Source of the DNA: Ginglymostoma cirratum
Lineage: Eukaryota
DNA: 64,000 nucleotides
NCBI GenBank assembly: GCA_024137785.1
Contig: JAHRHZ010000046.1
Location: 31,286,320 to 31,350,319 of the forward strand
Direction of reading: 5' to 3'
The translations under genes were made by a program, and so were the position numbers. Shown here piece by piece: positions 8,862 to 56,548 of the stretch. Below the pieces are notes generated by a model. It saw only the letters and a program-made list of their open reading frames with translations. It searched no databases and was not told the origin of the DNA. Positions within the stretch are counted from its first letter, which is position 1. Every line of letters starts with the position of its first letter.

Positions 8862-9066
8862 GAGAACTACTGGAAACCTGAAACAAAAGCAGAAATTTCT
8901 GGAGAAACTCAATACGTCTGGCAGCATCTGTAGAGAGAAAGCAGCGTTAACATCGGAGGTCCAGTGACCGTTCTTTAAAATCCTCTGAAACCTAAAACAT
9001 TAACTTGGTTTTCTCTTCACAGATGCTGCTAGATCTGCTCAGTTTCTCCAGCATTTTCTGCTTTTG
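8862..9066. mobile_element. Decayed hammerhead fold-back element (family B)
   Basis: caaaagcagaaatttctggagaaact...gcagcatctgt (from 8884) is inverted relative to acagatgctgct...agtttctccagcattttctgcttttg (to 9066); similar to 56588-56720. Confidence 0.8.
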
Positions 9067-10121
9067 CAACAACTACATATCTTTCATAAAACTTGAGCCG
9101 TCCACCTCAATTCAAGGCAAGAGGATGCTGAACTGTGGATCTCAATTTGACGTGTATTACTAACTTGGCTTCAATCTCCCCAAGAAATTAGTTTCTTTTC
9201 TGAAGCACGTCTTTCAAATTTCAACCTATGGAGTATAAAGCTTTTGGGGAGCGTTAAAAGCTACAACTGGTCTCATTAAGTGAAATGAAATTGTAAACAA
9301 TTGATTTTTGATTGAGGGTTACTTTTCCACACCTGTTTTACTTTTCTTTAGTTGACAAAATGCCATCTGGCTGAAATGATGGGGTTTTAAAACTGATTGT
9401 GTGTTTCTGAAAGGAACTGGACCTAAATGGACTATAATTACCCAAAATCACACATTGTCACATTATTTTTGAATGCTTTCTTAGGGAGGATGAAATCAGT
9501 AAGCATTCTTCAGTGTAGCATGCAAAGGAAACATAGACATTGTTTTAAACTAGTACTTCTTTCATAAGCATTTAAATATTTTATTCAATTTAATTGTATA
9601 TTCCAGGCACAATCTCACACAAAACATGACAAGTTTAGATATTATTTTGCTCAGATGTATCTCCTCAGCAATTCTACATGTGGTCTGTAAATATCTTACG
9701 CAATGAAAATAACAAAAATTAAATAAGCAATTCTCATTTTTCTCCCCCCTTTAAATCTAAACAAAACTGGAATACTAAGAACAGAAACTTCTGAGCCCTT
9801 GAATGACATAGGCCACGGCAAGAAATTTAGGAGTTTCAAATGTCCAGAGAAGCCCTTCTCAACGCCAAAAGGAAAAGGCTCATTTTTAAACTAAGTGTTG
9901 GACATCGAGACAAGATTATCAATAATGAGCTGCAAGAGGCCTATGAACACAGATTATCACTCATTGTCACACTCATTATCTCACCTCATTAATGTGCTTG
10001 TTCCTCTTCTGGTGGAGTGATAGTGTCCCTACCCACAAACTGATAGGCCTAGGTTCAAGTCTAATCTACACCAGAGATGGGTGATAACAGCAAGCTGGGG
10101 TCAAAAACCCAACTGAGTCCT

Positions 10122-10214
10122 GGTGAAGAGTCACTGAATGCAAAACATTAACTCTGATTTATCTTCACAGATGCTGCCAGAACTGCTGAGCTTTTCCAGC
10201 AACTTCTGTTTTTG
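10122..10214 (+). mobile_element. Single-arm decayed family B copy
   Basis: aaacattaactctg...cacagatgctgccagaactgctgagcttttccagcaacttctgtttttg is nearly identical to 56612-56683. Confidence 0.8.
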
Positions 10215-12752: not shown

Positions 12753-12980
12753 CAAAATACAGCAGATGCTGGAAATCTAAAAGAAGCACAGGAAGTGGTG
12801 AGGCAACTCATTTAGTCTGACAGCAACTGTGGAGAGAGAAGCAGAGTAAACGTTTCGTCTCTGATACAACTCTTCTTTAAGTACTGAAAACATCAGACTC
12901 AAAACATTGACTCTGTTTCTTTCTCCACAGATGCTCCCAGATCTGTTGAGTTTTTCTAGCATTTTCTACATTTGTTTTCA
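12753..12980. mobile_element. Decayed hammerhead fold-back element (family B-related)
   Basis: ctgtggagagagaagcagagtaaacgtttcg is inverted relative to aaaacattgactctgtttctttctccacag. Confidence 0.75.
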
Positions 12981-19433: not shown

Positions 19434-21026
19434 ACATTCCCCAGAATTCACTATTGATGATGGGTTCATGAATTACATGAAGCCTCTAGTTACAGGGTGT
19501 TTATTAATGAGTAATGAGTTTATGAGTTTATTAATTCGTGATTATTCGTTTGATTTTATCTGATATTCTCTTGTTTCTCCCTCAACAGGGATCAATCTAA
19601 CTTCTTTGTCCCGTTTGCCTATAGGACGATGGCCTGATGTCCATCAAGCTAGGGAACTCACTCGCTCGAATAAATTTAAAACAGTACAAATGAAATCAAC
19701 CTAATAATTACATAATTTTATTTTACACAGTACTTTTGGGGTAAAATTCAACCTTGGGGTTGGGGTAAGCTCTCTTAAGGGTAATTATAGAATAGGTAAT
19801 ATGCACAACTTTCTAGTCTTTGAAGATTTTAAGCGGCAAATTGAACTGGGTTTATGATAGACAGGTGATCAGCCATTACCTCTTCTTTACCCATACCATT
19901 GTCTGCATTTCTCACTCTCACTGAGATTTGAATTTTGCCCGTTCCACTTCAATGATTCCAATCCCAAAAGTATCAATTGAAAAGATCTGTCTTCTTATGC
20001 TAACAAAATAAATGGTTTATTGCTTATAAAAATTAGAACATTTATAGTTATTTTAAACGGATAAGAACAGATACTATGTGTATTATGATTTTTTTTTAAG
20101 GTTGCATTGATCAATTTAATTTGCGCTGGTTATTAGCACCAGTCAAACACACAGCCAATAAAGTTAGCAATAAGCGGATATAAAACTGAACCATGTGCCT
20201 CATTTGAATGTTACTGTTAAGCTGCCGGCACATGATGAGGATGTACAATAAAATTGCGACTTGGAAAAGTGTTGTTGACATTTATAACACCACCTCTGAC
20301 ACCATCTCAAGTTTTCAGATGAGCAAACATTTCAAAGGTGGACCAATTGAAAATTGTCAGGCTGCTGTCTACCCTAATATATGTTACCAGCTGTTGTGAG
20401 GAGCTGACATCACTTGCCACAAAGTGATTGCTGAGTCTGAATGGTTTCATTTCATCTCTAACTCACTAAATTCTAAGGAAGCTTTCAAAACTTAACTGCC
20501 TTCAAGTTACACAAGAAATTGGTGTGAGAATATTTAACACATTCCTATGTAATTACTTTCTCTTTTACTTGTATGAACAACAAACAATTGAAAATAAAAG
20601 TCTTGATGCTTCTCCTAGACAGATAAGGATTAACAAACAACGACATTAAGCAAGTGATTACATTTGTGCAAGTCTAAGTGGAAGGCCCATGTCAATTATT
20701 ATTTTGAACAGAAGGGAAAAGTATATTTTTAGTACCTCCTCCAGAGTGAAATGTAAAATGGTAAAAATTGATTATTATGTATAAATTAAATAAGATTTCT
20801 CAGATCATTCTTGTCCAAAGTTCTTAAAAAAATTAGAGATGACCTCCAAGACAGCCATTATCCACAGTTAGCAGTTATTAATATGAGTTAACAGTATATT
20901 TGTCTGAAGCATTCGACCTACAATAGGGTGTGAATGCTAGGCAGAGGTTGTACACTGTGAAGCCATAAATTCACATATTGCATTGTGCTTGATCATAAAT
21001 TGAAAATGGGATGCAGTTTTACAAGA

Positions 21027-21352
21027 GTTAACAAGGTGCAGAGCTGGATGAACACAGCAGGCCAAGCAGCNNNNNNNNNNNNNNNNNNNNNNNNNNNNNN
21101 NNNNNNNNNNNNNNNNNNNNNNNNNNNNNNNNNNNNNNNNNNNNNNNNNNNNNNNNNNNNNNNNNNNNNNGGAGCAGGAAAGCTGACGCTTCGGGCCTAG
21201 ACCCTTCTTCAGAAATTTTTTTTTTCTGAAGAAGGGTCTAGGCCCGAAGCGTCAGCCTTCCTGCTCCTCTGATGCTGCTTGGCCTGCTGTGTTCATCCAG
21301 CTCTGCACCTTGTTATCTCAGATTCTCCAGCATCTGCAGTTCCTGCTATCTC
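21027..21352. mobile_element. Young hammerhead fold-back element (family A) with 15-bp TSD; contains a 100-N gap
   Basis: Near-perfect inverted arms meet at cagaaattttttttttctg. TSD tgcagttttacaaga at 21012-21026 and 21353-21367. Confidence 0.92.
21071..21170. other. Assembly gap (100 N)
   Basis: N run. Confidence 1.
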
Positions 21353-24235
21353 TGCAGTTTTACAAGATGCTCTTTTTATTAAGACAGTCTCCATCAGAAA
21401 AAACTGACTCAATGTAACTGTCGATGAAATATGAAAATGTCATGGGTTCTGTGAAACAAAAAGATAGGACATTTAACATTTAGAATTAACTATCTGCGAT
21501 CCATTATGAATAATACCTGATATGTGTTAAGAGAATTCCGGGTAGTTCTCAAAATTGAAGTGTTGTGGCAATAAATATAATGCACCCATTTTTTTCATTT
21601 GTACAATCAATCAAGCTCCATGACTGGACTGTTGTCCTAAAATTCATTTCCAAAATCTTCAATATCAAGAATAGACAGATCATGAACGAATCTTGGAAGT
21701 GTTAATATTTTCTCAGCTTTACCATCTCATCCACTTTTACTATATTTATGCATCCCTCCAGGCTTCATGTGTTATCAGGTGTTCTTCCTACATCTGCTAA
21801 AATCTTCTGTATAGAACATCTCATTTTCGTGACTTCAGAAAAAAATAAGCCAAGAATGAGCTTAGAATCTGAACAAAATCAAAAGCTGGTATTGTGTGGC
21901 TCAGACATATTCTGTCAAAGGTTCTGTGATTGACTCTCTTCATTTAGATCAAATGACAAAATAACTGGGCATTCAATTCCAAGTCCCTTTAATTTTCAAA
22001 TTTTCCCTTGTATCTCGCAGATGAAACAAAATAGCTTACGACTTTGATTAAAAGAATTAGAAGTATGAGTACAATAGGATAATTCTGTATTGAAATTGAG
22101 CAGACATCAATGAATTTTCTGTGATCAGTGAACGACACAAAGTGTCTGACTTGTTCAATGGAGCACTGTGCCTATGTGTGTGTATTTACAGGTACTGATT
22201 TCTTTTTAAGCATGTCACATCATGATACTGAAATTATTTCTGTCTGTGAAGAGAAATTGGTGCAATGTTTATTATGGTACAATTAAGTCAATTTTCTTCA
22301 ATATCTCCAAAGATTGACTTCTGTTCATATGTGACGCAACAGCAGAGACAGAATAAAGTAAAAATGCTGCCAAGTGTCTCAGCAGTATCTGGTAGGATCT
22401 TTTCCCCGAGAAAAAGTGACCTGTTATGTAAGTATAAATGGTTGGGAAGTGAAAGGTGGCAGTTTATTAACTGAGCCTGATGACCAATATCATGTAAACT
22501 CGATTGCAAGTGTCAGGAAGTCTAAAGCTGCAGAAGCAGTCATGAAGGATCAAATTGGAAGTACTTACCAATGGGTAAATCGCAAGCCTGCAGAGTTTTA
22601 ACTTCATATCTAACAGCTATTCTTGTTGTACAAAAACTCCAAAAAGGTATGACTAATATCACAGCCTCAAATTAGATTGACAAGGCACATTATGAGATAA
22701 CTGACAATTGTTACGGCTGTTGCATATGATAAACATGTAACATGCATCCATTCAAGAAGTTAATACAAAACAGAAATATTATTGACGTCAAGAGGTCTGA
22801 TAATAAGGTACTGGAGCATAAGTTAATGTTCACATTTCCTTACTTAGCTAAAACAACATTATAAATTAAGAAGATTTGTACTGTGTGTCTCCGCATAAGA
22901 AAGAAAGAAAGACTTGTTAACTGAATGATGTTGGTTTGAATGGCTGTTAATGGTGGCCCAATAATGAAATTATAGAATGACATGTAAGGTACTGATTACA
23001 ATGGAGATAGTGTCAGGACAAGGACCAAGTGCAGTGGGAAGCAAACCAGAAATTAGATGGATTCAACAGCCCAACTGTGTGTGTGCCTTGACTTTCAATG
23101 CAGAGTGAAAATCCAGCCTGAGTCAGGTTTTTTTTGTGACATGTGAAAAGCCACTGTAAGTGCAGGATTAGTAGGAAGATAAAATATGGACAAAACAGCT
23201 TCTGTTACCTTAAAACTTTTCATATGACTGATAGTTGCTACTGTGTTTTAGCAGTTATATAATTATACATTTAATTATTCAATGTCACAATCAATCAGTC
23301 TGTTTTATGTCATTTAGATACTGAAAAATTCTCACTCTGTAAAACATAGCCTGTGGATTTTTACTCCTCTATTGAGACTTTTTGCAGTGTTTCTGTACAG
23401 AAAATCTGAAGAAACTGTTTTGGAATGGGAAGATGTGTGACATTAGCATGTATTTGCAAGTGTTGTCTGATTTGTTAATCTGTTTTTCTCAAATACGTCT
23501 GAGTTTTGGCTAATGTGCAAAATTAGCTTTTGAACATCAAGCCCTGAGTACCCATTTATAGAATTTTATGTGAAAATTTTAATCACATGCAATCCTCAAG
23601 TATGGGTTAAAGTGCTGCAATGAAAAACTCTAATGATGTGTAACTGCTTTAGTTTACTTTTGTATTCCTATTCTAATCTAACTAGCCAATGAATCATTTC
23701 ATTCATTCATTTAATTATTTGCTAGTCTAATGTTTGCTTGTTAAATTAATGAAAATTTCATCTCAATAGAATAAACAAGTTGGACTAGTGTAATTACAAT
23801 GTGAGGCCCACCTCTACTAGTTCCATTGTGAATGTCAGACTAGCTAATGTAAGTGTTTGTATTTACAATCTGAATTCACTGTATGTTCAATCTATGTAGG
23901 TAGTGTGTACTATCTATGGGATGGATCACATTACTCACCAAGACTTCTTCAACAGTATCTCCCAAACACATGACCTCCACTGCAAAGGTGAAGAAGGAAA
24001 CAGACACATAGGAATACGATTACCTCCAAATTCCTTTCCAAGCTACACAGTCTCTTGGCTTGGATGGTCTTCACTGTTGCTGGATTAAAAATTCTAGAAA
24101 ACTTGATCTAACCATCCTGTGGGGAACCTTCACTGTAAAGATTGAAGTTAATATTGATGCTTCCTCCACGTGGCACGTGCTGTTTGGGTTTAGAACTTGT
24201 GAGCTATATTGACTGATAAAATCTTCAGTGATTAT

Positions 24236-24520: not shown

Positions 24521-25668
24521 TTACCAAATTTTAAGAATGATTTACCCATAAATATTCTATAGATCTGGAAACAATAGCACATAACAATTGCATTGATCAC
24601 CAAACAATGAAAATAATTGGTCCCCCTCTTAAAAATTTCAATGATTCCATAGGATGTCTACGTTTAGGTCAGACTTGTAAATCAGTCCTTTGGCAACACG
24701 CTGGGTGTTGGAAAGGCTGGTAAAATGGAATTGGCATGCAACAGAGAGAGGTGCCGGCTGTTAGCAAAATGACATATAATAGGAAAGTTGGCAGATTGAC
24801 TGTCCCCCGTGAGCCAACTTGAGCCACATAAGTAGCCAATGAAAGGCCATTCCCCACCTCCTTGGTCAATCAGTCAGGTGCCATGTGGGGAAACTTGTAA
24901 GTAAAATCTGTCAGTCTCTAATTGGACTCTGGGTAGATTGGGGGGGGTGTCATTCTTGTTTGAGTACTCTTTGAACCTCTTTGGAGTCTTCAGCAGCAAT
25001 GGCCACAATTTACCAACAGCATCTCATGTATACTACAAACAACTATCCTTACCTTAATGATCATTATTACTGCTCCCTTTGCTCAGAATATTCCAATCTT
25101 TTTTACAAAAATTAATTTATTAGCCCATACCCTCACAAAGAACCTTCACTGGTCTCCTCCATGCTCTTCAAAGACCTCTTCCCTCTTATGTTGAAAATCC
25201 TTGAAAGCATTGTCACTTTCAGTTCAATTTTAATTCCTTTCGTCTGTCAAGCTCAGACACCTACCTTGTAACTCCACCCACAGTGCTTTATATGTCCTTG
25301 AACCCTCGGCAGGATTTGACATGGTAAGTACCTCAATTATTATCCATTAGTTTTTTTTCTGGTTCATCTACATGGAACTACCAAATGGTTCCAGTCCACG
25401 TGTCCTATTACTGTCAGTGCATCTCTAACCTCTACACATACAGTTCCAAACATCTTGCAGTGTCCTTCCAATCCTCTCCTTTACCTTATTTACATTTTTT
25501 CACTTGCCAACAATATCTACATTTCCATTTTTGTGGAGTTGCTAACAGCACACACTTCTATCCCTTTACTGGCTGACTCAGTTATTTGGCTGAAATCAAT
25601 TCATGGGATAATAAGAACTTACTACAGATAATGATTGGGAAGACCTCAGTCACTGTTCTGTCTTACTA

Positions 25669-25770
25669 AGTTTTGAAGAAGGGTGACTGGACCCGAAACA
25701 TTAACTCTATTTTATTTTCACAGATGTAGCCAGGCCTGCTGAGTTTCTCAGCAATTTTTTTTTTTTGTTT
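25669..25770 (+). mobile_element. Single-arm family B copy beginning at the hammerhead
   Basis: agtt-ttgaaga-agggtgactggaccc-gaaacattaactc...cacagatgtagccaggcctgctgagtttctc. Confidence 0.8.
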
Positions 25771-27512: not shown

Positions 27513-28142
27513 ATAACAAGCATGGGGCTGGATGAACACAGCAGGGTCAAGCAGCATCATAGGAGCAGGAAAACTTGACGTTTCGGGCCTAAACCCTTNN
27601 NNNNNNNNNNNNNNNNNNNNNNNNNNNNNNNNNNNNNNNNNNNNNNNNNNNNNNNNNNNNNNNNNNNNNNNNNNNNNNNNNNNNNNNNNNNNNNNNNNNN
27701 NNNNNNNNNNNNNNNNNNNNNNNNNNNNNNNNNNNNNNNNNNNNNNNNNNNNNNNNNNNNNNNNNNNNNNNNNNNNNNNNNNNNNNNNNNNNNNNNNNNN
27801 NNNNNNNNNNNNNNNNNNNNNNNNNNNNNNNNNNNNNNNNNNNNNNNNNNNNNNNNNNNNNNNNNNNNNNNNNNNNNNNNNNNNNNNNNNNNNNNNNNNN
27901 NNNNNNNNNNNNNNNNNNNNNNNNNNNNNNNNNNNNNNNNNNNNNNNNNNNNNNNNNNNNNNNNNNNNNNNNNNNNNNNNNNNNNNNNNNNNNNNNNNCG
28001 GGCCTAAACCCTTCATCAGAAAAGGGTTTAGGCCCGAAACGTCAAGTTTTCCTGCTCCTATGATGCTGCTTGACCTGCTGTGTTCATCCAGCCCCATGCT
28101 TGTTATCTCAGATTCCCCAGCATCTGCAGTACCTTTTATCTC
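27513..28142. mobile_element. Young hammerhead fold-back element (family A, same variant as the PLE at 36791); contains a 400-N gap
   Basis: Inverted arms 27513-27598 and 28023-28106. TSD-like cagcccagatataa at 27503-27516 and 28160-28173. Confidence 0.9.
27599..27998. other. Assembly gap (400 N)
   Basis: N run. Confidence 1.
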
Positions 28143-31090: not shown

Positions 31091-31562
31091 AAAAGAGACA
31101 CATAAATTCAAAGTCTTTCACATCATCTTATCAGGACAGACAGGCAAGAAGCCGAAGTGTGAAATCAAACAATTTATACAACATGACGAGAGTGTACTTT
31201 GGTTGGACAACAGTCAGCACAGAAATGCAACTGGAGCAGTTAATTGTGAATATTGGTTTGCTGAAAAAGCTCAGCACCCTCTCCTCATGCTATATAAATT
31301 GGTGTTCCCTTTCTAAGGTTTCCTTCTTAAATATCAGATAAAAACCGAAAGTACTGTGGATGCTGTAAATCAGGAACAAAAACTAAGCTGCTGGAAAAGC
31401 TCAGCAGGTTTGGCAGCATCTGTGAAGGAAAAAACAGAGTTAACATTTCGGGTCCGGTGACCCTTCCTCAGAACTGCTGAGCTTTTTCAGTAACTTTGTT
31501 TTTGTTCTTAAATATCAGTCCTGATGACCAAAGATAAAAATGCTTTGACTAGTGTCGCATTT
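31091..31562. mobile_element. Older fold-back element (family D) with outward-facing hammerhead-like motifs, interrupted by the 31338-31507 insertion
   Basis: tcaggacaga...aatttatacaacatgacgagagtgtact is inverted relative to agcaccctctcctcatgctatataaatt...cagtcctgatga. Both sides read gtcctgat(a/g)a....(g/a)aaa..ctttga. Confidence 0.6.
31338..31507 (-). mobile_element. Family B hammerhead element (full minus arm plus short inverted arm) with 14-bp TSD
   Basis: Minus strand AGUU-CUGAGGA-A-GGGUC-ACCG-GACCC-GAAA-UGUU-AACU. TSD ttcttaaatatcag at 31324-31337 and 31505-31518. Confidence 0.92.
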
Positions 31563-33192
31563 TGACAAAGCTTAGACTGTCTATTGCCAAGAATTATTTT
31601 TATACTTGAAAAAGGAGTATTGTGGAGAATTTTAAATCAACACTAAACTCAAGGCTCTGATCAATATTTTAATCAGTATTTGTGACACTGTGGGGAGACA
31701 ATCTCAACTAGAACACCAGAAAGCCTCTCCAATGAAACAAAAGGACACACATACAACATATTCATTCACGTTACATCCCCTTCTTTTGTACACCAATCAT
31801 ATTGCACTACATCATACTACATGTTCATTTATTTGCAGATTTAAGAGGTATAGCAATGGTCTTGATCAACTGCAGTTTATTCACATATACATGTAACAGG
31901 GATAGCTGTGGTATGCAGGTAACATCTGCTATTGCGAGGTAACAGCACATTTGTTCTTTAAGAGCTTTGTTTCTCCCAGCATCTTTATTTTATGTTGGCA
32001 TCTACTATATGATTTACATTGGAAGTCTCTGTTTCTAACTGCCTGGTTTCATATTTGATCCTTTCAATGCTATCAACATACTTGCATTGTTCCGACTTCA
32101 AGGATCCATGCATTTCCCATTCTTCAATTGGAATACTTACATCTAAAGGAGGGAATCGTGTGGGGGAGATGTGTTCATGATAACATTCTAAATAGCCTCT
32201 CCAGCGCATATAAATTAATATATCTGGACGTTCTAAATATTATACACAAACAGTCACTATCGCTCTCACTTGCTTTCCTGTATGATTTAAGTCCTGCCCT
32301 CGGTGTTCCAAAACCTTGGATGCAGTTTTTCACCATTAACTTTTGATCAAGTAGAAGGATAATCAGTCATGTCCATACAATTCAGTCACCAAAATAAATG
32401 CAGGAGTTTCAGATCACGTCAATGGGATAACTTCATCGATACATCAACAGCTGCTGCCCTCTTTGCTTTATAATGAAATATTTAACACAGAATTCAGTGT
32501 TTACCTTTTGGTTGTGTTGTCACAAACACTGAAGCGTGCACAAAATAACTGTTATACTGTAATTAAAATATATAGCCTGCACCAAGATAAATCTTTGAGA
32601 CACATCCCTACCTACTACATAAATTCATTCAACAAAATTGAAGCTTCTGTGACCCATGTCAAGCAGCGATGAGCAGCTCAAAACAGTGGCAGTTCAGATC
32701 TCCCTAAGAAGGATACGACTATATCACATAATAAATAAATTGTTGTTTCGATAGCATTAAGATGCTGAATGCCATCCTGCAATTGATCTTTAATGTGCAA
32801 CAATTTAGACATGCTCCTTTATGAGAGAAACCCTACAAAAATGGAATTTTAAAGCAACTCTAGCCAGATTAAATGTGTAACATGTGTACAATTTAGACAG
32901 CCTAGCTTTGCAAAACAAATCTTCCCGAAGAGTGACAAGAACAATTCAACCTTTGCATAAAAATATTCAAAAGCAATGTTTCTCAGGTTGAAATGATGTC
33001 TCTCAACTGCAGCATTTTTGCCCTGATTGGTAATCCTGAAAGCTTCTTCACACAAAGTCTGGACATATTGCTGCATTTTCATTGCTACAGCAAAACAGAT
33101 TTAACATCATGTCAATGCAAAACTGTATTCAAAATGCTAGCCAGCTCAAACTCAGATGCAACAAAACATCCACTTGACTTACCATGTCATGA

Positions 33193-33327
33193 TGTGGAGG
33201 TGCCGATGTTGGACTGGGGCGGACAAGGTCAGAAATCACACAACACCAGGTTATAGTCCAATGGGTGTATTTGAAATTTCAAACATATTTGTTGGACTAT
33301 AACCTGGTGTCGTGTGATTTCTGACCT
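33193..33327. mobile_element. Fold-back element (family C), no hammerhead retained, 14-bp TSD
   Basis: aggtcagaaatcacacaacaccaggttatagtccaa (33226-33261) is inverted at 33292-33327. TSD ttaccatgtcatga at 33179-33192 and 33328-33341. Confidence 0.85.
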
Positions 33328-33384
33328 TTACCATGTCATGACATCGAATTACAAAGAACCATCTGATGAACACCCAATATGGAA

Positions 33385-36165: not shown

Positions 36166-36790
36166 CTGATGTAGTGAGGTAGGTAGGTAAAGAGGGATTG
36201 GCAGTAAAAGGTGTGAAGATGGCTATCAGAATCCCCTCCACATTTCTCAATGTTGGGTGCCTTGATCAGGCTAGGGACTGGCTTTGAAGAAGGAGTCGCC
36301 TTCTTCCTCTATCTTCACTTCAGGAGATGACACAAGCAGGTTATCCAGGTTACTTGTCACATTCTCGGTATGGTAATGGGTCAACCTATTCCTCAAGCCA
36401 GGTGAATACTAGTGCCGGTAGGATGAGGGGCTTTAATGGTCATTTAGTGTCCACAAAGCTATCAAGTGGTGGCAGGGTCAACAACAGACTTTCTTGCTAC
36501 AGATTTAATCACGGTAGAGGCAGGAAGGAGACGGAAAGCTCACCTGTCACTCTCCCACCCAATTACATGGGTCCTGGACTCCAAGTATGCCACTAGAGGG
36601 GGCTGAAGATTCCAACTATCTGTTTCTCTCTGAAATATTTTCCTTCTGGATTGATGAAGCTAAACTTTGTTTTTGTGGTTGCACAATTCAGACATAGACT
36701 ATCAACATGTGAGGTTTTGTAGTTTGGCAAGGGAAGCAATGACCAATAAGTAATGGAATATCACTGTCCAATAAATAATGGAATAGCAGT

Positions 36791-38773
36791 GATAACAAGC
36801 ATGGGGCTGGATGAACACAACAGGCCAAGCAGCATCACAGGAGCAGGAAAACTTGACGTTTCGGGCCTAGACCCTTCATCAGAAATGGGGGAGGGGAAGA
36901 GGGTTCTGAAATAAATAGGGAGAGAGGGGGAGGCGGATAGAGGATGGATAGAGGAGAGGATAGGTGGAGAGGAGGCAGACAAGTCGAAGAGGCGGGGATG
37001 GAGCCAGTAAAGGTGAGTGTAGGTAGGGGGGTAGGGAGGAGATAGGTCAGTCCAGGGAGGACGGACAGGTCAAGGGGGCAGGATGATGTTAGGAGATGGG
37101 GGTGTGGCTTGAGGTAAGAGGAAAAACAGGTTAGGAGGTGGAGATGAGCTAGGCTGGTTTTGGGATGCGGTTGGGGGAGGGGAGATTTTGAAACTTGTGA
37201 GATCCACATTGATGCCATTGGGCTGCAGGGTTCCCAGGCTGAATATGATTTGCTGTTCCTGCAGCCTTCGGGTGGCATCACTGTGGCATTGCAGGAGGCC
37301 CAGGATGGACATGTCATCTGAGGAATGGGAGGGGGAGTTGAAATGGTTCGCGACTGGGAGGTGCAGTTGTTTGTTGCGAACTGAGCACAGGTGGTCTGCA
37401 AAGCGGTCCCCAAGCCTCCGCTTAGTTTCCCCGATGTAGAGGAAGCCACAACGGGTACAGCGGATGCAGTATACCACATCTGCCTGATGTGGAAAGTCTT
37501 CTTGGGGCCTGGGATTGGGGTGAGGGAGGTGGTGTGGGGGCAGGTGTAGCACTTCCTGCGGTTGCAGGGAAAAGTGCCGGGTGTGGTGGGGCTGGAGGGG
37601 AGTGTGGAGCGGACAAGGGAGTCGCGGAGGGAGTGGTCCCTCCGGAAAGCAGATAAGGGTGGGGAGGGAAAAATGTCTTTGATGGTGGGGTCTGATTGCA
37701 GATGGCGGAAGTGTTGGAGGATGATGCGTTGGATCCGGAGGTTGGTGGGGTGGTATGTGAGGACGAGGGGGATTCTTTTTTGGTTATTATTGCGGGGACG
37801 GGGCGTAAGGGACGTGTTCCGGGAAATGCGGGAGACACGGTCGAGGGCGTTCTCGACCACTGTCGGGGGCAAGTTGCGGTCCTTGAAGAATGAGGACATT
37901 TGAGATGTATGGGAGTGGAATGTCTCATCCTGGGAGCAGATGCGGCGGAGGTGAAGGAATTGGGAATAGGGGATAGCATTTTTGCAGGAAGGTGGGTGGG
38001 AGGAGGTGTATTCCAGGTAGCTGTGGGAGTCAGTGGGCTTGAAATGGACATCGGTTTCTCGGTGGTTACCTGAGATGGAGACAGAGGTCCAGGAAGGAGA
38101 GAGAAGTGTTGGAGATGGTCCAGGTGAACTTCAGGTTGGGGTGGAAGGTGTTGGTGAAGTGGATGAACTGTTCGAGCTCCTTGTGGGAGCACGAGGCGGC
38201 GCCGATGCAGTCATCAATGTAACGGAGGAAGAGGTGGGGTTTAGGGCCAGTGTAGGTACGGAAGAGGGATTGTTCCACGTAACCTACAAAGAGGCAGGCA
38301 TAGCTTGGGCCCATGTGGGTACCCATGGCCACCCCTTTTGTCTGTAGGAAGTGGGAGAAATTGAAAGAGAAGTTGTTGAGGGTGAGGACGAGTTCGGCTA
38401 AGTGGATGAGGGTGTCAGTGGAGGGGGATTGGTCAGTTCTGCAGGACAGGAAGAAGCGGAGGGCCTTCAGGCCATCAGCATGGGGAATACAGGTGTATAG
38501 GGACTGGATGTCCATCGTAAAAATGAGGTGTTGGGGACCGGGGAATTGGAAGTTCTGGAGGAGGTGGAGGGCGTGGGTGGTGTCACGGACGTAGGTAGGG
38601 AGTTCCTGGACCAAGGGGGTGAAAATGGAGTCTAGGTAGGTGGAGATAAGTTCGGTGGGGCAGGAGCAGGCGGAGACAATGGGTCGACCAGGGCATTCAG
38701 GTTTGTGGATTTTGGGGAGGAGATAGAAGCGGGCGGTGCGGGGTTGGGGAACGATGAGGTTGGAGGCAGTGGG
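36791..38773 (-). mobile_element. Penelope-like retroelement (probably Neptune-type), 5'-truncated and frameshifted; RT + GIY-YIG endonuclease + 3' hammerhead module
   Basis: RT motifs FYLLPKIHKP..GRPIVS, TMDIQSLYT, QTKGVAMGTHMGPSYA, FLRYIDD. Linker PLVLTYHP and PCNRRKCYTC. GIY-YIG domain VVYCIRCTRCGFLYIGETKRRLGDRFADH...HFN...LGTLQPNGIN. Flanked by tggaatagcagt (36779-36790) / tgggatagcagt (38774-38785), a 12-bp TSD with 1 mismatch. Confidence 0.95.
36852..36885 (-). ncRNA. Minimal type I hammerhead ribozyme motif in the PLE 3' region
   Basis: UUU-CUGAUGA-A-GGGUCUAGGCCC-GAAA-C-GUC^AAG: intact catalytic boxes, stem II GGGU/GCCC, palindromic ACGU in place of stem III, short stem I UUU/AAG. Confidence 0.8.
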
Positions 38774-41109
38774 TGGGATAGCAGTATTGCCTTATCCTAT
38801 CAAGTTTCTGATCATATCAGATTGCACTTAATTTATCTTCATCACCAGATTGGGAGTAGGTGGATTTGCAGGTTTCTTCAATCAGAAAAAAAGGCACTCC
38901 ACCCACATTGCATATATTTAATCGCTCGCTGCATTCTCTTCACCTGTAATCAAAGTTACCAAACAACTTGTAGAAAATCTACTTCATATCTGCAGAAATA
39001 TTTGACACAAGATTGAAACTTTTTATTTGGCTGTACTTTTCCCATAATAAAAAGGACAAAAGAGCAACTTACAGCACATGTATGTACACTTGTATTAAAT
39101 ACTTCTTGGTTACCTCATTATTCACTAAAATTAAGTGTTCTAACATTTCAGAAACCCTTCAGCATCTGTGTCGAAAACAAACTGGGGAGTTGCCGTGTGT
39201 GACAAAGTGATGAAAAAAAAATTCAACAAGGTTTTTACATTAATTGTCACATGCCCACGATATAAGCATATGGCAATTACATAGTTACAATTTAGGGTTG
39301 AGAGAAACAGATTATTTTGGGTAGTTTATATCTTCATACATTTGGTTGCAGCAACATCACAGTTCCATCTGGTTCAGACAGGCAACTTTTCATCTTTTCT
39401 TTTGCCCGTCTGAAAGCTGGGTGGCCCCAGGAAATATCAATATATCTATAATTTTTAACAAAGAAAACACACTTTACATCACCTCCAATATATATCAGTA
39501 AGAGTGATTGCTGGGTTTCAAACATTGAAAATTTTGAACAATTGCCAGCTTTAATAATTCAAAGGTCCCAAGAGTAGGAATTGATCAAACCGTGCTTTAA
39601 AAAAAACTCACTAACAATTAACCAAAATTAATTTGACTGTTGATTTGAACTGAAGAATGTCACCAAAAATTCTTCAAAAAATAAACTCAATTTTGCATGC
39701 TCATTTTTTGCAGTCTTTAAGTATCTGTTCCATTTTAAAAGGGAGGAATAATGATGTAATCCTCCATACATACCAACCTTTGTATCCAGCTGTCAGCACT
39801 GCAGGATAAGTGAATGGATTCCATAGCACTCTGTGGTGCTGTTTCATCAGTCAGCTCAGCTAAGGTGTAACACATTGCTGTTTATCTTTTGCGCCTGATT
39901 CAAGAGTTGCAGAAGTCAGAAACCCAAAGAGGCAACAAAGGCCGATGATTATCATTGCACTTTGAGCACAGCGACAACTCAAAGTCTCAGGCAGATCTAA
40001 TGGAAAAGTTGTTTTAAAAAAAAGTCAAAATTAAACTGAAAATGTTGCCTCTGTCATTGAGAATAGACGTAATACTGTTACCACAATGTGTTGCATAGAA
40101 ACTACATCAAACCCTCCGAAGTGACTGACTGAAATCTATAAATTAATTGGAACCTTTCAAGGAAATGTATTCTACCACAGCTATTTCCTCCCATAACCAC
40201 AGTCACACAATTACAGGGCTTTCTAAGACACAACTGTTCTAATTTTTTTCTCATTTACTTGACTGAAGCTACTAGGTCCATACTGAGAGTAACATTAATG
40301 AACCCTTGTCACTCTCCTGAAATCAATTGTCCACATGCATGAACTGAAGCAGTGAAGAGTCAGCTTTGTGAAGGCTTCACAAGCAAAGTACAATCTTGCC
40401 TTCACCTAATATCCATTGATTCATCCTCCTAGCTACTGATCAACAATGTACCCAATTTCCAAAAAAAGGCTCTTCTGTGAAAAGAAAATCATTTATCCAT
40501 GCAACTCACTGTGATTTCAATTAAATGAACGTAATTTTCACCCCCAAAAGTAGGTTGCTTTGGGTTGCATGCAAAATAAAGACAAAAAAAATCTGAAAAT
40601 CCCAAAATTGATCAAACCAGAGAATAAAAGGCTGGATCTGGACAAGAAGAAACAGCAGTGTTTCCTCCAGGACCAACAAGTTTTCTTGTGCACACCCCCA
40701 CCCCAACCCCGCTCATCACCATCATTTGCCAAATTCCCACTACCTCAAATGCAGACTCTCCAAATTCCCCTTCCCACCAACAGAATGTAACTCACCCAGT
40801 CTACTCCCTCTCCCTATAATCTTCCCTTTCCCAGATCACAGAATCTTCCCAATGTCATCCTCCTTTCTGCCTCTGCCTCAAACCTTAGCTGTGGCACAGT
40901 GCTGAGGCCAGCAGCCTCTCAGTATATGCTTCTCATCCAGTGCTTCTACCCTGCTCCCTTTCCATTTCTCCATAAATAAGATTAATAATCTGTGAATTTT
41001 ACAGGACAGCAAATGCTGAGACTGAATTTAAAACCTGTATCATCCAGAGGAATATACTAGTAATCTACTAATTGCACCATGCAGTTATGTCTTGAATACA
41101 GCATCTAAC

Positions 41110-43616
41110 ACAAGTACTGTATATGAGGGACTTGGTTAGGTGGATAGGAAGGACTTATATTAATTAGTGGAGATGGCTATAACCAGAGGAGGTATTGATT
41201 TCAAGTAATTGGTGGAAGGTAAGTTGAAAACATTAAACTGTTGACCCATCTTTGATGAGTTAATGGCATGGATTGACCATGGAGGTATGATATTGTTGCC
41301 ATCATAGAAATATGGTTAAGGGAACGGCTGGACTGGCAACCGAACATTCGGGGTTTAGGAACTATAGGCAAGACAGAGGAGTATGTAAAAAAGAGTGTTG
41401 ATGTAGCATTACTAATTACGGAGTCAATTACTGCAATAAGGAGAGATGATATCTTGGAAGGGTCCTCAAATGAGGCTTTGTGGGTAAAACGTAGGAACTC
41501 GAAGGAGCAGCCACTCTACTGGGAGTGTACTATAGGCCCCCAAAGAGTCAAAGGGAAATAGAGGACCAAAGATGTAGACAGTTAAAAAAGATATGTATGT
41601 TAGAGTAATAATCAGGTAACTATACTAGGAGATTTCAACTTTCCCAACCTAAGTTGGGATAGTCTTAGGGTTAAGGGTTTAGAGGGGGAAACATTTCTTG
41701 AGGATATCCAGGGGATTTTTTTTTGTATGAGTATGTAGAAGACCCTACAAGGGACAGCACACTGCTGGATCTGGTTCTGTGGAAAGAAGAAAAACATGTG
41801 TACGATGTGGCAGTGGGGGAACATTTTAGCGATAGCGACTACAATTTGGTACGGTTTAAATTTATTCTGGGCAAGGAAAAAGATGGCCTGCAAAAGATGG
41901 CTTTAGATTGGAGGAAGGCAAACATAAAGAAGGTTCCAGCCTTTTAATTCCCCTCTGGCTACCGGGGAAGAGCCAGAGGACTGGAGAATGGCTAATGTGG
42001 TTCCACTTTTCAGCAAGGGTGGTAGAGATGAATTGGGAAACTACAGACCGCTAAGTCTCACATCCGTGACAGGGAAACTTTTGGACAAAATTCTGAAGGA
42101 GCAAATTAATACCCACTTGGAAAGACATGGGCTAATTAGGGATGATCGACATGGTTTTGTCAGAGGGAGGTCATGCCTAACAAATTTGTTAGAATTTTTT
42201 GAAAATGTGATCAAGTGTGTGGATGAGAAAAGTTCAGTTGATGTAGCTTATGAGGATTTTAGCAAGACTTTTGACATGATCCTACTTGGAAAACTGATTA
42301 AGAAGGTTAAAGCACCTGGAACTGAGGAGAACTTGGCAAGTTGGATCAGAAACTGGCTTCGTAATAGGACACAATAATGGTAGAAGGTTGTTTGAGTGAC
42401 TGGAGGCCAGTGTCCAGCAGTGTACCACAAGGATCAGTGCTGGGATTCCTATTATTTGTCATGTACATGACAGATACAGTTGTAAATGCGGGAGGAATGT
42501 CAAGCAAATTTTCAGACAAGATCAAGATTGGTCGAGTGGATAACAGCAAAGAAGATGGTTGTAGGTTGCAGGAAGATATAGCTGGATTTATCAGATGGGC
42601 AGACCAGTGGCAGATGGTATTTAACCCTGATGAGTTGGAAGAAGAAACAAGATGAAGGAATATTTAAAGAATGGCAGGACACTAGGTAGCTCAGAAGAAC
42701 AGAAGGATGTTGGGGTAATTATTCACAAATCCCTGAAGTCGGCAGAGCATGTGAATAGGATAGTTAAGGCCGCATAAGGAACACTTGTTTTCATCAGTCG
42801 TGGCATAGTGTATAACAGCAAGGAGGTAACGTTGGAGTTGTACAGAATGTTAGTCAGGCCACAGCTGGAGTACTGTATGCAGTGCTGGTCACCTAATTAC
42901 AGGAAGGATGTGATAGCACTGGAGGGGGTACAGAGGAGGTTCACCAGGATGTTGCCTGGGATGGAGAAATTGAGCTATAAGGAGAGATTAGAGGGGCTTG
43001 GATTGTTTTCTTTAGAGCAGAGAAGACAGAAAAGGGACATGATTGACATGTATAAGATTATGAGGGGTATGGACAGGGTGAATGGAGAGCAGCTGTTCCC
43101 CTTAGTTGAGAGGTCAATCACGAGGGGGCATAGCTTTAAGGTGGTTGGCAGAAGGATTACAAAGGACATGAGGAAAGACCTTTTCACCCAGAGGGCTGTG
43201 GATGTTGGGTATGAAATAACTCCACAGGGGCCAGGATCCAATCACCAAGTCACCCGTTATTTACACATGGACAGGGATCCAGCTCCCTCAGGGCCAGCTC
43301 TCAGAGTGAACAGAACCTCTGACACTCCTGTTTATAGCTGTCAGCGAGGGGTCCCTGATTGGACCAGATCAACAGCCCCAGTCAAGGAACTCATAATTTA
43401 TGAGGTCCACCTGGCTGTCCTTGTTACAATCACTACAGGGAGTTTATTTGGAAATCTTCAAATCATTTCAAAGGAACAGAGATCTACACTTCCAATGCTG
43501 TAACTTGAAAGGTGCTATTCACAAACATCAGATTGGCAGCTAGCTTATTCAGACAGCGCAAACATCATGGGCTGAATGGCCCCTTTCTGTGCTGTAACTT
43601 TTCCATCATTTTATTT
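41110..43616 (+). mobile_element. CR1 LINE with APE endonuclease and RT remnants, internally deleted and frameshifted
   Basis: EN: YDIVAIIEIW, GVYYRPP, ILGDFNFP, PTRDSTLLDLVL, HFSDSDY. RT: WRMANVVPLFSKG..GNYRPLSLTSVTGK, HGFVRGRSCLTNL, DFSKTFD, VPQGSVLG, LVRPQLEYC..WSP, LEGVQRRFTRMLPGM. 3' UTR gggctgaatggcccctttctgtgctgta. Confidence 0.95.
43203..43437 (-). mobile_element. Solo LTR (~235 bp) inserted in the CR1
   Basis: TGT...ACA termini. Minus strand has CCAATCAGG, CTATAAA and an AATAAC polyA-like signal. Flanks tgga/ggga (4 bp, 1 mismatch). It interrupts the CR1 frame after FTQRAV. Confidence 0.75.
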
Positions 43617-51650: not shown

Positions 51651-54600
51651 AAATGCCTCCAATATTAAAATCTCATTCTTGTACTCAAATCCCCCTTGAT
51701 CTTACGCATCTCAAACACCATCCAGTCTTGAACTCTCTGTTCCGCTGACTCTAGATGCCTGTGCATCCCATCCCTACCATTTACTGTTATTCTTTCAGTC
51801 ATCCAAATCTATGACAATCCCTCTTTCCAGTTCTCCAATTTTCTTTCTTCCATTAAGATCATCCTCAAAACCTACTTATTTTCTGAAGCTTTTACTAATT
51901 CCAACTAAAATCTTTTTTTTTGGATATGAGTCTATGCTTCTCTAACTGCACCCCTGCTAAGTGGAACATTTCCTAGGCTTACTGCACTGTACAGTGAAAG
52001 TCATTAAAATCTGTCAACTGTTCATGACATTTTACAGAAGCATTTTAGATGGAAGAAGTGGTTGGGCAGCATAGTTCTTAAGTTCAGTGAAGATGCTGGA
52101 CATTAGGAAATGTCTTTTGCTACAAAGATAAATGGAGGAAAGAATTTTGATTAACTACACAATGGGTAATTTATCACAAGCATGTGAAAGTAGCTTTAAT
52201 GATGGCATTTAAAGATTTGCAAGATTAAATATAGGACAAACACTGCACAGCAATCCCAGTTTGAAATTCAACAAACCATAAAGTACACTAAATTCTAAAT
52301 GTTCCTTTGGAATGTCATATATTTCCTTGAGTGAGAATGAGGTGATTTCAATTTCTTTCGGTTTCATCATTCATAAGTTATTGAATTAGACTCATTGGTG
52401 AAAACAAATACCTCATTGCAAGATGTAACAAATGATTATCTGCCAGAGAGATATTCTAAACACAATCTCACAAGTCCCCTTGAACTTTCATTCTGAGACA
52501 TCCAATTGATTGTTAATAAGTGTATTTCAGCATACTCTGCACTGAAAATCCAGATTCAAAGCATTTGGGATGCAGATTTCGTTAGGCCTATTAGGTCAAA
52601 TTAATGATGGCTGAAAAGGAGAGACATTCACTATTTAATTAAACCTCAGCTGATAAATAATATTGTTCAGATAAGAGTGCATAATTTGCAGCATTATAAT
52701 GAGAAGAAAACAAAAATAGTTAAATGTACTTAATTAAAAATGAAGGAAGATCATTTCATTTATAATAATAGGTTTAGAACTGCTGAATCAGGTATTGAAC
52801 AAAAGTCTGCAAAGTTAGATGAAAAATATGTATGCCATGGTGAAAGATTTCTGTAGATGAAGTTGACTCTTATGAGCATCACAATAGCTCAATATCCTGT
52901 ACTAAGAAAGCTTAACTTGAATGCAAAGACAGATTGTAAAGAGCTGCTAAGTTGTCACTGAGGAGTTCACATATGCATGCACAAAGTCAGCCACATCAGT
53001 TATCAATTATCAGAAACATAGTGTGTCAATTCTCCTACCACATCCTGGAACATTTTACAGCCCAGCTACTCAACAATCACCCAATAATATTCCAGCTGAT
53101 GACATTACAGAAGTACATAAAGTCCAGAAAGACCAATTCCTTCAGTTTTATCTCCTACATAAAAGGACTAGTTAACTGTACTAAACAAAAAGCTATCATT
53201 TCCGATCATTTAATCAAAATATTTTAAGATTTGTACAAATGAACTTTCAAAATTTCTGAAACCGAGTAGATGATTTATGAGTAAGTAACGTCCTCAAGTA
53301 AAACTTAGTTCAATAACCTCATTCTGCAGCCTCTGAAAGATAGTATCTACTAACACTACCACTTTTATTTATAATGTCATATATATATACAACAGCGAGC
53401 ATTAAAATACTTTCCTAAATCGTTCGTTGGAAAACCTGCAGATGGTGTTGAACTCAACCTGGCGCACAGTTTATGCATTTTTTGATGCTGCCGATTCTCC
53501 GTGATTGCTCGAGTTCCTTTAATGCTGCTCGAAAATAAATGACAGACTGGGACAAGGTAAGTTAGTCGCTAAACTCTGTGAATGGCTTAACCCAGTGAAT
53601 ACTGAATCACTAACAGCCTTCAGAACCACCGGAAAGTCTCTTCCGGCGTTTTCGGGACGGGTCACATTTGCTAATCTGCAAACCACCTTTAACTTCTGTA
53701 TCGATGAATAGTGAGAATGATGATCGCCTCCAAAATGAGTTCTGCCTTGAATACCCGCAGAACGGGGCGTGCAAAATGTCAACGAGCAAACACCAGTGTT
53801 TCCTTTACAGACGCTTTTGTCGAATGGGCTTTCCAAACAAACGTATTCTACCTGGATTCTCAACAAAACGGGCCACGCACTTCGTTCAATCGTCTCAGAC
53901 TGATGTACAAACTTGGAACTTAACAGCTGGAGAGATCGTCTGGTTACATGGTTCCGTGTGCAAACAGTGAAAGGAGATTGACTTCAAAAGGTTCAAAACC
54001 TCTGCGCGAATCACTATAAGACAATAATTATATCGCCCCTTTTTAGGACCCATTGCTAGCCCGAGTTAACTTAGTCATTTTTATTCTGATAAACGTTTAG
54101 TCTGCTGTTTGCTTCAAAGTTTCCACTGAGCTGAAGGGTCACCAGGCTCATGCTGAGATCTCCGTCTTGGTTTCAGATGAATGCAAAGTCTCAAACCCAC
54201 CCAGGGGCACACACACTCGCAGCCTCTCTCATGTCTCACCCGAGCAGCGGGAAATCCGTCCCCGTCTCTCCTTTACAGACTTGAGCCGCGGGCAGCTGTG
54301 GGTCGGCCAATGTAGCCCCCGTTGGAAAGTTCGGAGAAGTTCAGAGGCAGGTGGGAGAGAGCCCCTTGGTAGCGGGACTTTCAGCGCTGCAGCCCGGGCT
54401 CTTTACACGGAGCTCCAGCGCCCTCCACTGAACCTGCAACTCCATTCCCAGGGACAGTTCTCCTCATTCCACCGCCCCCGCCCCCTCCTCCCCGCTGTTT
54501 GCACACTCACCAATTCATACGACTGCACTCTTGCCTCCTCTTAAATATACGTCCACTTAAAATCAATTCACAAAAAAAGTGTCAAGTCAAATAAATTGCA

Positions 54601-54765
54601 ACATTCATAAGGAGAGAGAATCAGTGAGGATTTCGGGGTTTTTTTTGTTGCTCTGTTTGTAAAAGGACGGCGTACCGTTCCTAGTTTGCCCCGTCTCGCC
54701 GCAAATCGAACAGTTTGCATTTGTTTGCAGAAAGGAAAACAATTCAGAAACAAGAGGATGTTTAC

Positions 54766-54856
54766 CTTCTTTCAGGAGGTGTGAATGGATCACGAATATG
54801 AGGACACAGCAGATAGCTGTTCCAGTCAAAGCCCACACAGCTTTCAGGAGCTGCAT
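54766..54856 (-). CDS. TAFA5: TAFA5 (FAM19A5) first coding exon of the MQLLKA-type isoform (signal/hydrophobic N-terminus)
   Basis: ATG at 54856-54854 reads MQLLKAVWALTGTAICCVLIFVIHSHLLKE-G, then a phase-1 donor AAG|GTAAAC at 54766/54765. From memory this closely matches the human TAFA5 isoform N-terminus MQLLKALWALAGAALCCFLVLVIHAQFLKEG, which also breaks at G|QLAAGTC. Downstream exons were not found in the window. Confidence 0.93.
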
Positions 54857-54879
54857 GCTGAGAATCGCAGGCAGCAGCG

Positions 54880-54903
54880 TCAGCCTCCCCGACAAGGTAC
54901 CAT
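54880..54903 (-). other. Short upstream ORF (MVPCRGG*) ending 23 nt before the TAFA5 ATG
   Basis: tccATGG at 54903, out of frame with the main ATG; stop TGA at 54882-54880. Confidence 0.5.
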
Positions 54904-55042
54904 GGAGAAAGAGGCTTCCCCCTGCTGAAACTCACACACACAGACCCTGCTGGGACCGAGAACTGTGGCCTTCACTGTGGGGCCGGGGTGTCGCTGCCCG
55001 GATCCGCACTATCCATTCAGCCGCTGCTTTCACTGTTCACTT

Positions 55043-55079
55043 TGTGTGTATGTGTGAGAGAGAGAGAGATAGAGAGAGA
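55043..55079. repeat. (TG)n(GA)n compound microsatellite
   Basis: tgtgtgtatgtgtgagagagagagagatagagagaga. Confidence 0.85.
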
Positions 55080-55859
55080 CTGACCAGCCAGACCTCCCAC
55101 AACCCTCTCCTGGGTCACTGAGTTAAAAAGAAGCAGGTCCAGTTTGTTTGGATGTGCCTGGGGAGACGCAGGTTCCTATCTCGGTGCCTTTACTTCAGTT
55201 CAGTGAAAGAGGGCCCGCTCCATCTCCGCCCCGCACTCTGTCTGAGCAGGAGAGCGCCGCTCTCCACCAGCTCCCACTCACCGCCTCTTCTCCACACTTT
55301 TTTATCCCGGGGGCTGCTGCAGAGACGACAGCTCATGGTCTCGGGGTGCACGGTCACTCCTGTTCTCCCCTCCCTTTCTTGACACACAAACCACCCAAAA
55401 AAAATATATATACACCCCTTCCCCTCCCAGTCCCACCCCGGATCGTCCTCACTCGCCACTCCCAGCAGTGAAAAGCAGTCAGTTCAGAAGCCCTGCCTCC
55501 CCTCCCTCTCTCTGTGGCTCAGACAGGAGTCTGTTCACTTCAGTCGCGATCCTGCTCCACCGATGGATAGTGCCTGGGGCCGGGAAGCTGCTGCTTTCTG
55601 TATCTTCATTTTATTCATACCCATTCCAAGGAGCGAGGCAACATCTTCCAGCATTGGGAGCTGCTCTCAGTCACTCTCCTCCGTCCAGAGCTTTTCAATA
55701 CGTTTTTCATGCACGATCTCAGCTTGTTAATGTAGCTGTGTTTGTTTCAAGTGAATTTCTCCACTGCAATCCGCCACCTTCCTCTCACTGGCAGCAAGCT
55801 CACTTCAAGTCTGCCCCGTCTCAGGGAACCGACTGCTCCTCCCTCCCCAGTCAGGACCA

Positions 55860-55985
55860 GCCTCCTTCTCTCTCTCTCACCCGGGCTGCATTTATACCGA
55901 AACCCCAGCTCCTGATCCCGCTGGTAGGTGCCCACTCCTCCCCCGATTGGAAAACGGGAAGGTAAATCCTCTCCTGACGTCAGGC
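55860..55985 (-). promoter_or_regulatory. Core promoter of this TAFA5 first exon: CRE, CCAAT, GC-box-like element, TATA
   Basis: In minus-strand order: TGACGTCA 55975-55982, CCAAT 55946-55950, GGGGAGGAG ~55935-55943, TATAAA 55891-55896. Order and spacing are canonical and predict a TSS near 55862-55866, pointing toward the exon. Confidence 0.7.
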
Positions 55986-56548
55986 GGAACACATCTGGAA
56001 TAAGAACTGGGCTCTGGAGTGTGTCCGGGCAGAGAACGCTCTCAGTCTGCCAACATCATGTCAACTGTGTCTAGCAGTGGCTCAGCTTCGTTTAGATCGA
56101 TAACTGTATCAGCTACAGGGGACCGCCTGGGTGTCAGTCATACCGTCACTGCACCAGCACTGTAGTGGCAAGCCTTGAAGTTAAATCATATCCATGTTTC
56201 TTAAGGGCGGAAAATCGAGCAAATAAAAACTGAACTCTATTCGCCAGTGTTGCAGATAGCAGTGAGTTCAATTCGCTGCTTCAAGTGGCGTGGATACAAC
56301 AATCCCAGTGTGGAACTATACATCCCGGTTTATCCAGTTTACCGAGAACCTCATGTAACTAACTCTGTATCTTTCCCCGCCCCGATACCGCAGGAAAGAA
56401 TGTGATACTTTGAATCGTGGCCCATTACAGGCCAATGCCAGATGGGTTGTAACCGTTTAGGTTCACTTTGCACAGGCCAGTGTACACGGTCTAAATCAGA
56501 TAACTTCAGAGGCAAGGGTCTATCCATGACAAACATAAAGATTTATTT

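Follow-up and report, generated by a model that had tools for sequence, protein, structure and literature searches.

The 64,000-nt window analyzed here, from Ginglymostoma cirratum, contains short repeats that carry hammerhead-like motifs, several of them arranged head to head. These repeats raise the questions of which elements the motifs belong to and whether the RNA copied into new insertions is cut beforehand. The function of hammerheads in Penelope-like elements (PLEs) is described as unclear (PMC8557442); the statistics of the copies reported below make testable both the role of the hammerhead and the way in which head-to-head copies are made.

Hammerhead motifs at the ends of Penelope-like elements

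An initial annotation, made from the letters alone, had quoted hammerhead sequences of two families, A and B, and the letters at the cited places agree with it. The family A motif contains every core base, with CUGAUGA plus one additional A, GAAA, a palindromic ACGU and a GUC triplet; its stem II has 4 bp and the loop CUAG, and its 4-bp stem I (AUUU/AAGU) includes one U-G pair. In the family B motif, whose core bases are likewise all present, AGUU pairs with AACU in stem I, stem II spans 5 bp and the triplet is GUU. Positions with a sign are counted from core base C3. The copies and their neighbors are as follows.

30-129, plus strand: family A copy; G12>A at 56
21024-21354, both strands: family A head-to-head unit; A15.1>G in each arm
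31338-31504 (167 bp), both strands: head-to-head insertion unit containing the 31438-31475 copy; 14-bp target duplication, 31324-31337 and 31505-31518
31438-31475, minus strand: family B minimal hammerhead; C3 at 31471, with cleavage predicted at 31442/31441; C15.2>U at 31445
33190-33328, both strands: family C head-to-head unit; arms start at +32, without the hammerhead; target duplication found
36791-38774, minus strand: PLE assigned to the Neptune type, 5′-truncated and frameshifted, ending at a tail-less 3′ end; 11-bp target duplication (10/11 match), 36780-36790 and 38775-38785
36851-36886, minus strand: family A minimal hammerhead with every core base in place; C3 at 36882, with cleavage predicted at 36855/36854
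36886-36917, minus strand: predicted core promoter; TATA-like word TATTTA (36912-36917), 31 nt from the A (36886) of an initiator-like CCATTTC
37244-37474, minus strand: GIY-YIG endonuclease part (PF01541, E 1.2e-05)
38069-38774, minus strand: reverse transcriptase part (PF00078, E 3.1e-07)
56549-56720, both strands: second family B head-to-head unit; both cores broken, by C3>G at 56581 and G8>A at 56595; 14-bp target duplication (13/14 match), 56535-56548 and 56721-56734
61309-61505, both strands: old family A head-to-head unit; G12>A at 61388

The three lesions that had been noted, at 56, 61388 and 31445, are all present; those at 56595, 56581 and in both arms at 21179-21258 had not been listed, and neither had the PLE context. 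Stem III had been described as reduced to self-complementary ACGU, which is true of the copy with C3 at 36882 and no longer true of the 31438-31475 copy, where the CpG change at 31445 gives AUGU and breaks the palindrome. Among the seven window copies we parsed, core and palindrome are both intact only in the 36882 copy, and in none of the three family B copies checked; an eighth copy lies at ~61404. The family B copies cited initially (31438-31475 and 56588-56622) are damaged relics, and the former is probably inert. Older, decayed family B-like copies, some of them inverted pairs, lie at 8875-9066, 10112-10214, 12798-12972, 25665-25767 and 57370-57441, and stretches of N at 27599-28007 and 21071-21170 fall beside or between the arms of family A inverted units.

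A strict descriptor matched 30 times in 1.01 Mb (1,013,797 unmasked bases) versus once and not at all in two Markov controls, so the motif is not a chance occurrence. A search of the window with the Rfam hammerhead models, one of the proposed checks, found no hammerhead up to E 1, which fits a motif lacking helix III; the only Rfam matches were miRNA-like, on inverted repeats and all far under gathering scores. The motifs thus lack the Rfam match and the stable helix III of a canonical hammerhead. They do have the features of the min-HHR described in PMC4209133, the kind to which they belong: the CUGANGA and GAAA boxes, U16.1 and H17 are intact at 36882 and are the majority base in each sampled family (A-E), the extra base between 9 and 10.1 and the G10.1-C11.1 pair are present, a monomeric helix III is absent while the 15.2-16.2 palindrome is present, and the location is the pLTR of an element with reverse transcriptase (RT) and GIY-YIG frames. 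The initial reading as minimal type I, dimer-type hammerheads was therefore right by sequence features, and we regard it as almost certain that the motifs are such hammerheads in the pLTRs of several PLE families.

Energy models, which omit tertiary contacts, make the hammerhead fold the minimum in family B; in family A it scores -3.4 versus a minimum of -9.3 kcal/mol. That other folds are preferred in A and D and that stem I of family A spans merely 2-4 bp count against our best explanation below. In subfamily A1, stem II and its loop (36863-36874, minus strand) are fully self-complementary and could form a 12-bp duplex between two RNAs, which would compete with the hammerhead dimer (-33.8 versus -5.1 kcal/mol in the energy model). 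A palindromic stem II was discarded as a general dimer signal: it holds for A1 and not for B, C or D.

It had further been claimed that the catalytic boxes are shared between A and B while the stems change and still pair. The core is indeed kept. However, A and B are homologous along the whole pLTR by alignment, have the first three stem II G-C pairs in common, and differ in one compensated stem I pair (U-G versus G-C), so this comparison is weak evidence of selection. The covariation expected across more families appeared once C, D and E were added, in stem I (C-G/A-U), in stem II (A-U and U-A pairs) and in helix III, where ACGU in A, B, D and E is AGCU in C. Stem I reads U-A/U-A/U-G in A, U-A/U-A/G-C/A-U in B, C-G/A-U/C-G/U-A or A-U in C, and A-U/C-G/G-C in D. 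Stem II starts across the five families as GGGU/GCCC; GGGUC/GACCC; GGAGC/GCUCC; GUUACC/GGUAAC or GUCACC/GGUGAC; and GAGUC/GACUC. Pairs were read by structure in scripts, MAFFT having misaligned family D. Helices I and II thus pair and covary between families, while A to E all retain the core and a palindromic helix III.

The family A motif ends an element with RT (PF00078) and GIY-YIG (PF01541) frames. In most long copies the motif lies 220-480 nt behind the GIY-YIG domain; in long B copies the distance is 285-426 nt, behind a domain 53-61% identical to that of family A. Copies of C and D follow PLE-type frames, read by eye, that of C with a linker similar to family A's and that of D with a GIY-YIG domain and no linker. 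Neptune-type elements are defined by a CX2-5CxxC linker before a C-terminal GIY-YIG with CCHH (PMC8557442). The window frames contain CNRRKCYTC, a CX4CxxC linker just upstream of the GIY-YIG at 37244-37474 in a different frame, and YCIRCTRC. By this definition, family A would be of the Neptune type through its linker, as would C; B is assigned to it by GIY-YIG similarity only. Family D is likely of the Penelope/Poseidon type, since its GIY-YIG lacks the linker.

We give almost no credence to the idea that the 31438-31475 copy has been domesticated as a host regulatory ribozyme. Nothing points to it specifically beyond the occurrence of family sequences in poly(A) RNA, while its palindrome is broken, no partner in the same orientation lies nearby, and the 48 other long frames of the window gave no Pfam match to indicate a host gene. 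A G+C-rich island at 54000-56400 (53% versus ~38%) may be a host promoter, and its tested frames had no Pfam match. A second, non-Penelope reverse transcriptase fragment (PF00078, E 9.8e-13) lies on the plus strand at 41928-43503 in broken frames; it resembles a CR1-type LINE.

Copy number and 5′ ends of the short insertions

The 4.36-Gb genome contains 83,630 A-type and 7,474 B-type exact core matches (at least 91,000), with none for the reversed patterns, and 131,232 (A) and 26,685 (B) matches to the family tails. In an unbiased sample of 125 evenly spaced 10-kb stretches from four contigs (L121-L245; 1,013,797 unmasked bases), we counted 237 family A-D insertions, old diverged ones included; extrapolated from these four contigs only, this would correspond to about one million insertions genome-wide. 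Intact cores were found in 45/58 A1, 27/57 A2, 47/78 B, 4/25 C1, 3/5 C2, 9/30 D and 3/16 E copies, shares that are too high because the sets include loci selected for an intact core. Losses within families fall mostly at CpG positions.

For the analysis of ends, copies were chosen by their tail and not by the ribozyme, in three sources: the window, the unbiased stretches and 120 loci selected by tail. The 5′-end set (n = 183; A 84, B 80, C 19) comprises those solo copies and inverted pairs whose tail scored 55 bits or more; it omits inverted arms without a partner, long copies and any copy whose flanks are masked. All insertions number 211 in A, 153 in B and 49 in C. The 5′ ends of 106 of the 183 short insertions fall at -9 to 0 (A 38/84, p 3e-12; B 55/80, p 3e-29; C 13/19, p 7e-8, each against a uniform spread). 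The predicted cut shows no such peak: 3 of the 183 end within 2 nt of the scissile bond, where 12.5 would be expected if uniform. Nor do 3′ ends form a class at the cut among 346 core-matched copies, 10 of which end within 15 nt behind it; two 3′ ends at exactly +28 are one deletion and one poor match. Neither set of ends shows a fossil trace of cleavage. In the window, the minus arm of the 56549-56720 unit ends unusually, at +33; this arm (56549-56584) and a minus-strand copy near 1493 of sampled locus L059 are two family B arms with ends 3-4 nt behind the predicted cut, where stem I stops; such ends are rare (2 of 112).

Short-copy 5′ ends cluster instead ~30 nt behind a TATA-like box. Box and initiator are 29-33 nt apart in long A, B and C copies, and occur at exactly -35/-4 in 31 of 48 long A copies; B (8 copies) and C (12) have fewer and more variable ones. 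By sequence, the 36886-36917 segment would be the corresponding core promoter. Counting against this promoter reading, the TATA-like word of family A is non-canonical, and the D. virilis Penelope promoter is TATA-less (PMC2377424). Counting against run-off at the RNA 5′ end, the ends are spread over -9 to 0 with no single preferred base, and 77 of the 183 lie outside that interval.

Promoter and stem I are set apart in family D, whose TATA box is at -47/-48 in 13/30 long copies. A genome-wide count of its head-to-head junctions gives 38 around -16, 3 around stem I and none around -30, a motif with 284 occurrences in long copies; the three patterns used for the count are not equally broad, and there is a recurring junction type for which microhomology or a master copy could be the cause. 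With its junctions near -16, the 5′ boundary follows the box and not stem I. Against this, the initiator consensus is missing from where it would be expected, occurring in 1 of 30 long copies, at -18. The family D junctions support run-off, short of proof. In the family D junctions listed, the arms frequently join at a single self-complementary 2-nt overlap, a pattern of two or more subfamilies.

In poly(A) RNA reads, taken from a run labeled with the species of the best holder, depth changes stepwise at -3/-4 in A and B, where unrelated loose ends also lie, and molecule ends do not pile up. These fragment reads, mostly read-through of genomic copies in host transcripts, map neither start nor cut. 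Read joints at 36849/36850 were set aside as they may be alignment breaks at a subfamily indel. Two other origins of the boundary were rejected: a splice acceptor (solo copies have no common upstream exon) and hidden subfamily 3′ UTRs mistaken for 5′ ends (of 67 solo upstream flanks, only 6 have a match among the others). Fold-back on stem I was rejected as a general mechanism of the junctions, short-arm starts being scattered.

The core might instead be kept as a DNA or RNA signal, a downstream promoter element or protein-binding site, with cleavage lost. Its position directly behind the predicted start would suit such a signal, as would the absence of any genomic trace of cleaved templates and the GUU/CUU triplets of B and C, which are slow in hammerhead cleavage. 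In the available text of a recent preprint, moreover, 8/9 Xenopus dimers did not cleave (bioRxiv 10.64898/2026.07.22.740005). Nevertheless, distant lineages retain all core bases, G10.1-C11.1 pairing and the palindrome of helix III even as their stems covary, and the anole homologue does cleave, with dependence on C3-G8 and rescue (PMC11167929). We consider a pure signal improbable.

It also seems rather improbable that the short elements are non-autonomous SINE-like or retrozyme-like families arising from master copies of their own that begin at the hammerhead. Their very high copy number, by the tail matches above, would fit this, and pLTR-related retrozymes are described in vertebrates including one chondrichthyan (bioRxiv 10.64898/2026.07.22.740005). 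Yet the window has no tandem array of the motif, the inverted junctions analyzed below all differ, the boundary obeys one rule in four distinct PLE lineages, a solo copy has lost the TATA-like box, and the solo upstream flanks seldom match.

3′ ends and inverted pairs

The 3′ ends are bimodal, near +85-100 and +118-138, which gives two preferred ends ~35 nt apart and matches the two RT start sites and intervening tail of PMC11167929. Target duplications flank 14/136 (A) and 15/111 (B) short solo copies versus 5/408 and 8/333 shuffled, and 50 of 95 inverted pairs, mostly of 12-16 bp, versus 1/468 shuffled; the short copies are separate insertions. These 95 are the inverted pairs with both ends readable, and their junctions are distinct in 95/95. 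Exactly one arm carries the 35-nt tail in 81 of them, both arms in 1 and neither in 13, where independence would give 47, 18 and 30, respectively (p 9e-13). In the unit at 31338-31504, the long minus arm runs from -5 (31476) to a tailed 3′ end (+137), and the short plus arm from +58 (31469) to ~+93, or to +101 by an alignment that runs into the target duplication.

A tail on one arm was known and has been ascribed to self-priming and nuclease resolution (PMC3846280, PMC8557442). By this route the hammerheads would be the same, and head-to-head copies would arise by fold-back self-priming of one cDNA or antisense transcript, the tail being trimmed by the endonuclease. Arms of a pair do share subfamily-diagnostic bases (A 153/169, B 95/121; shuffled 58% and 61%), as fits one RNA or one source locus, and some junctions show microhomology, of 8 nt at 31469-31476. 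A fold-back copy can never exceed its template, and so the copied arm should be no longer at its 3′ end than the template. Among 43 asymmetric pairs, however, the only tailed arm is the one that does not reach the 5′ boundary in 25 cases and its partner in 14, and neither arm is tailed in 4. Those 25 call for either two primed cDNAs or an antisense template plus trimming, and the latter may still account for the one-sided tail. In many pairs, moreover, both arms reach ~-3 with scrambled spacers, and solo copies show the same 5′ peak. Taken together, we think fold-back unlikely as the source of the pairs.

Gene conversion between arms was rejected, with rare variants in common in 0/78 cases in A and 4/104 in B. 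At 21179-21258, A15.1>G is common to both arms even though arms so rarely share such variants (0/78 in A), and the 21024-21354 unit may derive from a source copy whose ribozyme was dead.

Proposed mechanism and comparison with known systems

The whole motif is kept in many short copies, which were therefore likely copied from uncut RNA up to its start. As the overall explanation, we find it probable that these are PLE hammerheads and that the short copies derive from uncleaved RNA reverse-transcribed to a 5′ run-off; that the run-off is combined with priming on two strands we hold with somewhat less confidence. Transcription would start a few nucleotides before the hammerhead. The element's protein would then nick both target strands with a stagger of ~14 nt and prime two cDNAs, one at each internal start site. 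When these sites lie in the 5′ repeat of the RNA, the cDNAs would be only ~95-140 nt long, would run off the RNA 5′ end, and could be joined to the target or to each other, giving solo or head-to-head copies. In such a scheme, uncleaved RNA would be the template for short insertions and ribozyme cutting would not be needed for them. With a 4-nt palindrome as helix III, the ribozyme would cut only as a dimer between tandem repeats; by analogy with the anole element, this cleavage is probably protein-assisted and would process tandem transcripts. Extension of both strands, two start sites and an uncleaved template have a precedent in vitro (PMC11167929).

A more speculative extension, to which we assign a low probability, is that a protein dimer primes one cDNA per target strand at different start sites on uncleaved RNA, and that the genome holds the fossil record of this process. 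The hammerhead would then lie at the very 5′ end of the transcript, its palindromic helix III clasping two templates like a retroviral dimerization signal, and cutting would be put off to another step.

The ribozyme kind itself is already known; what is new is the end and pairing statistics of the copies. In the searched literature, which excluded Lunse et al. 2017 and most subscription papers, we found no paper on the run-off boundary or the start-site coupling. As in the min-HHRs from pLTRs of metazoan PLEs (Cervera and de la Pena 2014, PMC4209133), the type I core here lacks helix III and has the extra base between 9 and 10.1, G10.1-C11.1 and a palindromic 15.2-16.2, and there are many families per genome, mostly as single copies, with opposite-strand pairs. 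Differences are the at least 91,000 exact cores here versus ~9,000 for Xenopus, counted by a different search, and the shorter, 4-bp stem II of family A. The searched supplement file of that paper names no shark; hammerhead repeats in one chondrichthyan are described in the 2026 preprint (bioRxiv 10.64898/2026.07.22.740005).

Non-LTR retrozymes (PMC7229834; bioRxiv 10.64898/2026.07.22.740005) are likewise short, numerous, PLE-related and equipped with a type I hammerhead. Unlike retrozymes, which form tandem arrays and circular RNA, with each tandem unit carrying a hammerhead, the sampled copies here are solo, inverted or the ends of PLEs. Copy number is high but not unique, the axolotl having up to 120,000 retrozyme copies (PMC7229834).

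In Adineta vaga Penelope (Arkhipova et al. 2013, PMC3846280), a TATA box and an initiator-like element (TCACT there) were already noted in the pLTR, and head-to-head pLTRs carry the tail on one arm, as here. Target duplications are 8-10 bp there versus 12-16 bp in our copies, and the inverted pLTRs are explained by self-priming on an antisense template.

Closest to our observations is the green anole Poseidon element PAc (Frangieh et al. 2024, PMC11167929), with two internal RT start sites and a 30-40-nt tail between them, both strands cut and extended, uncleaved RNA used, and no ends at the cut site. Families A, B and C differ from this Poseidon element in their Neptune-type assignment, and the available sections of that study report neither a coupling of the two start sites between the arms of an inverted pair nor a run-off where the RNA begins. 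We infer that the copies are a germline record of an uncleaved RNA template, a 5′ boundary that tracks the promoter, and two RT start sites used one per arm, which would carry what was observed in vitro for a single lizard element over to four lineages in vivo.
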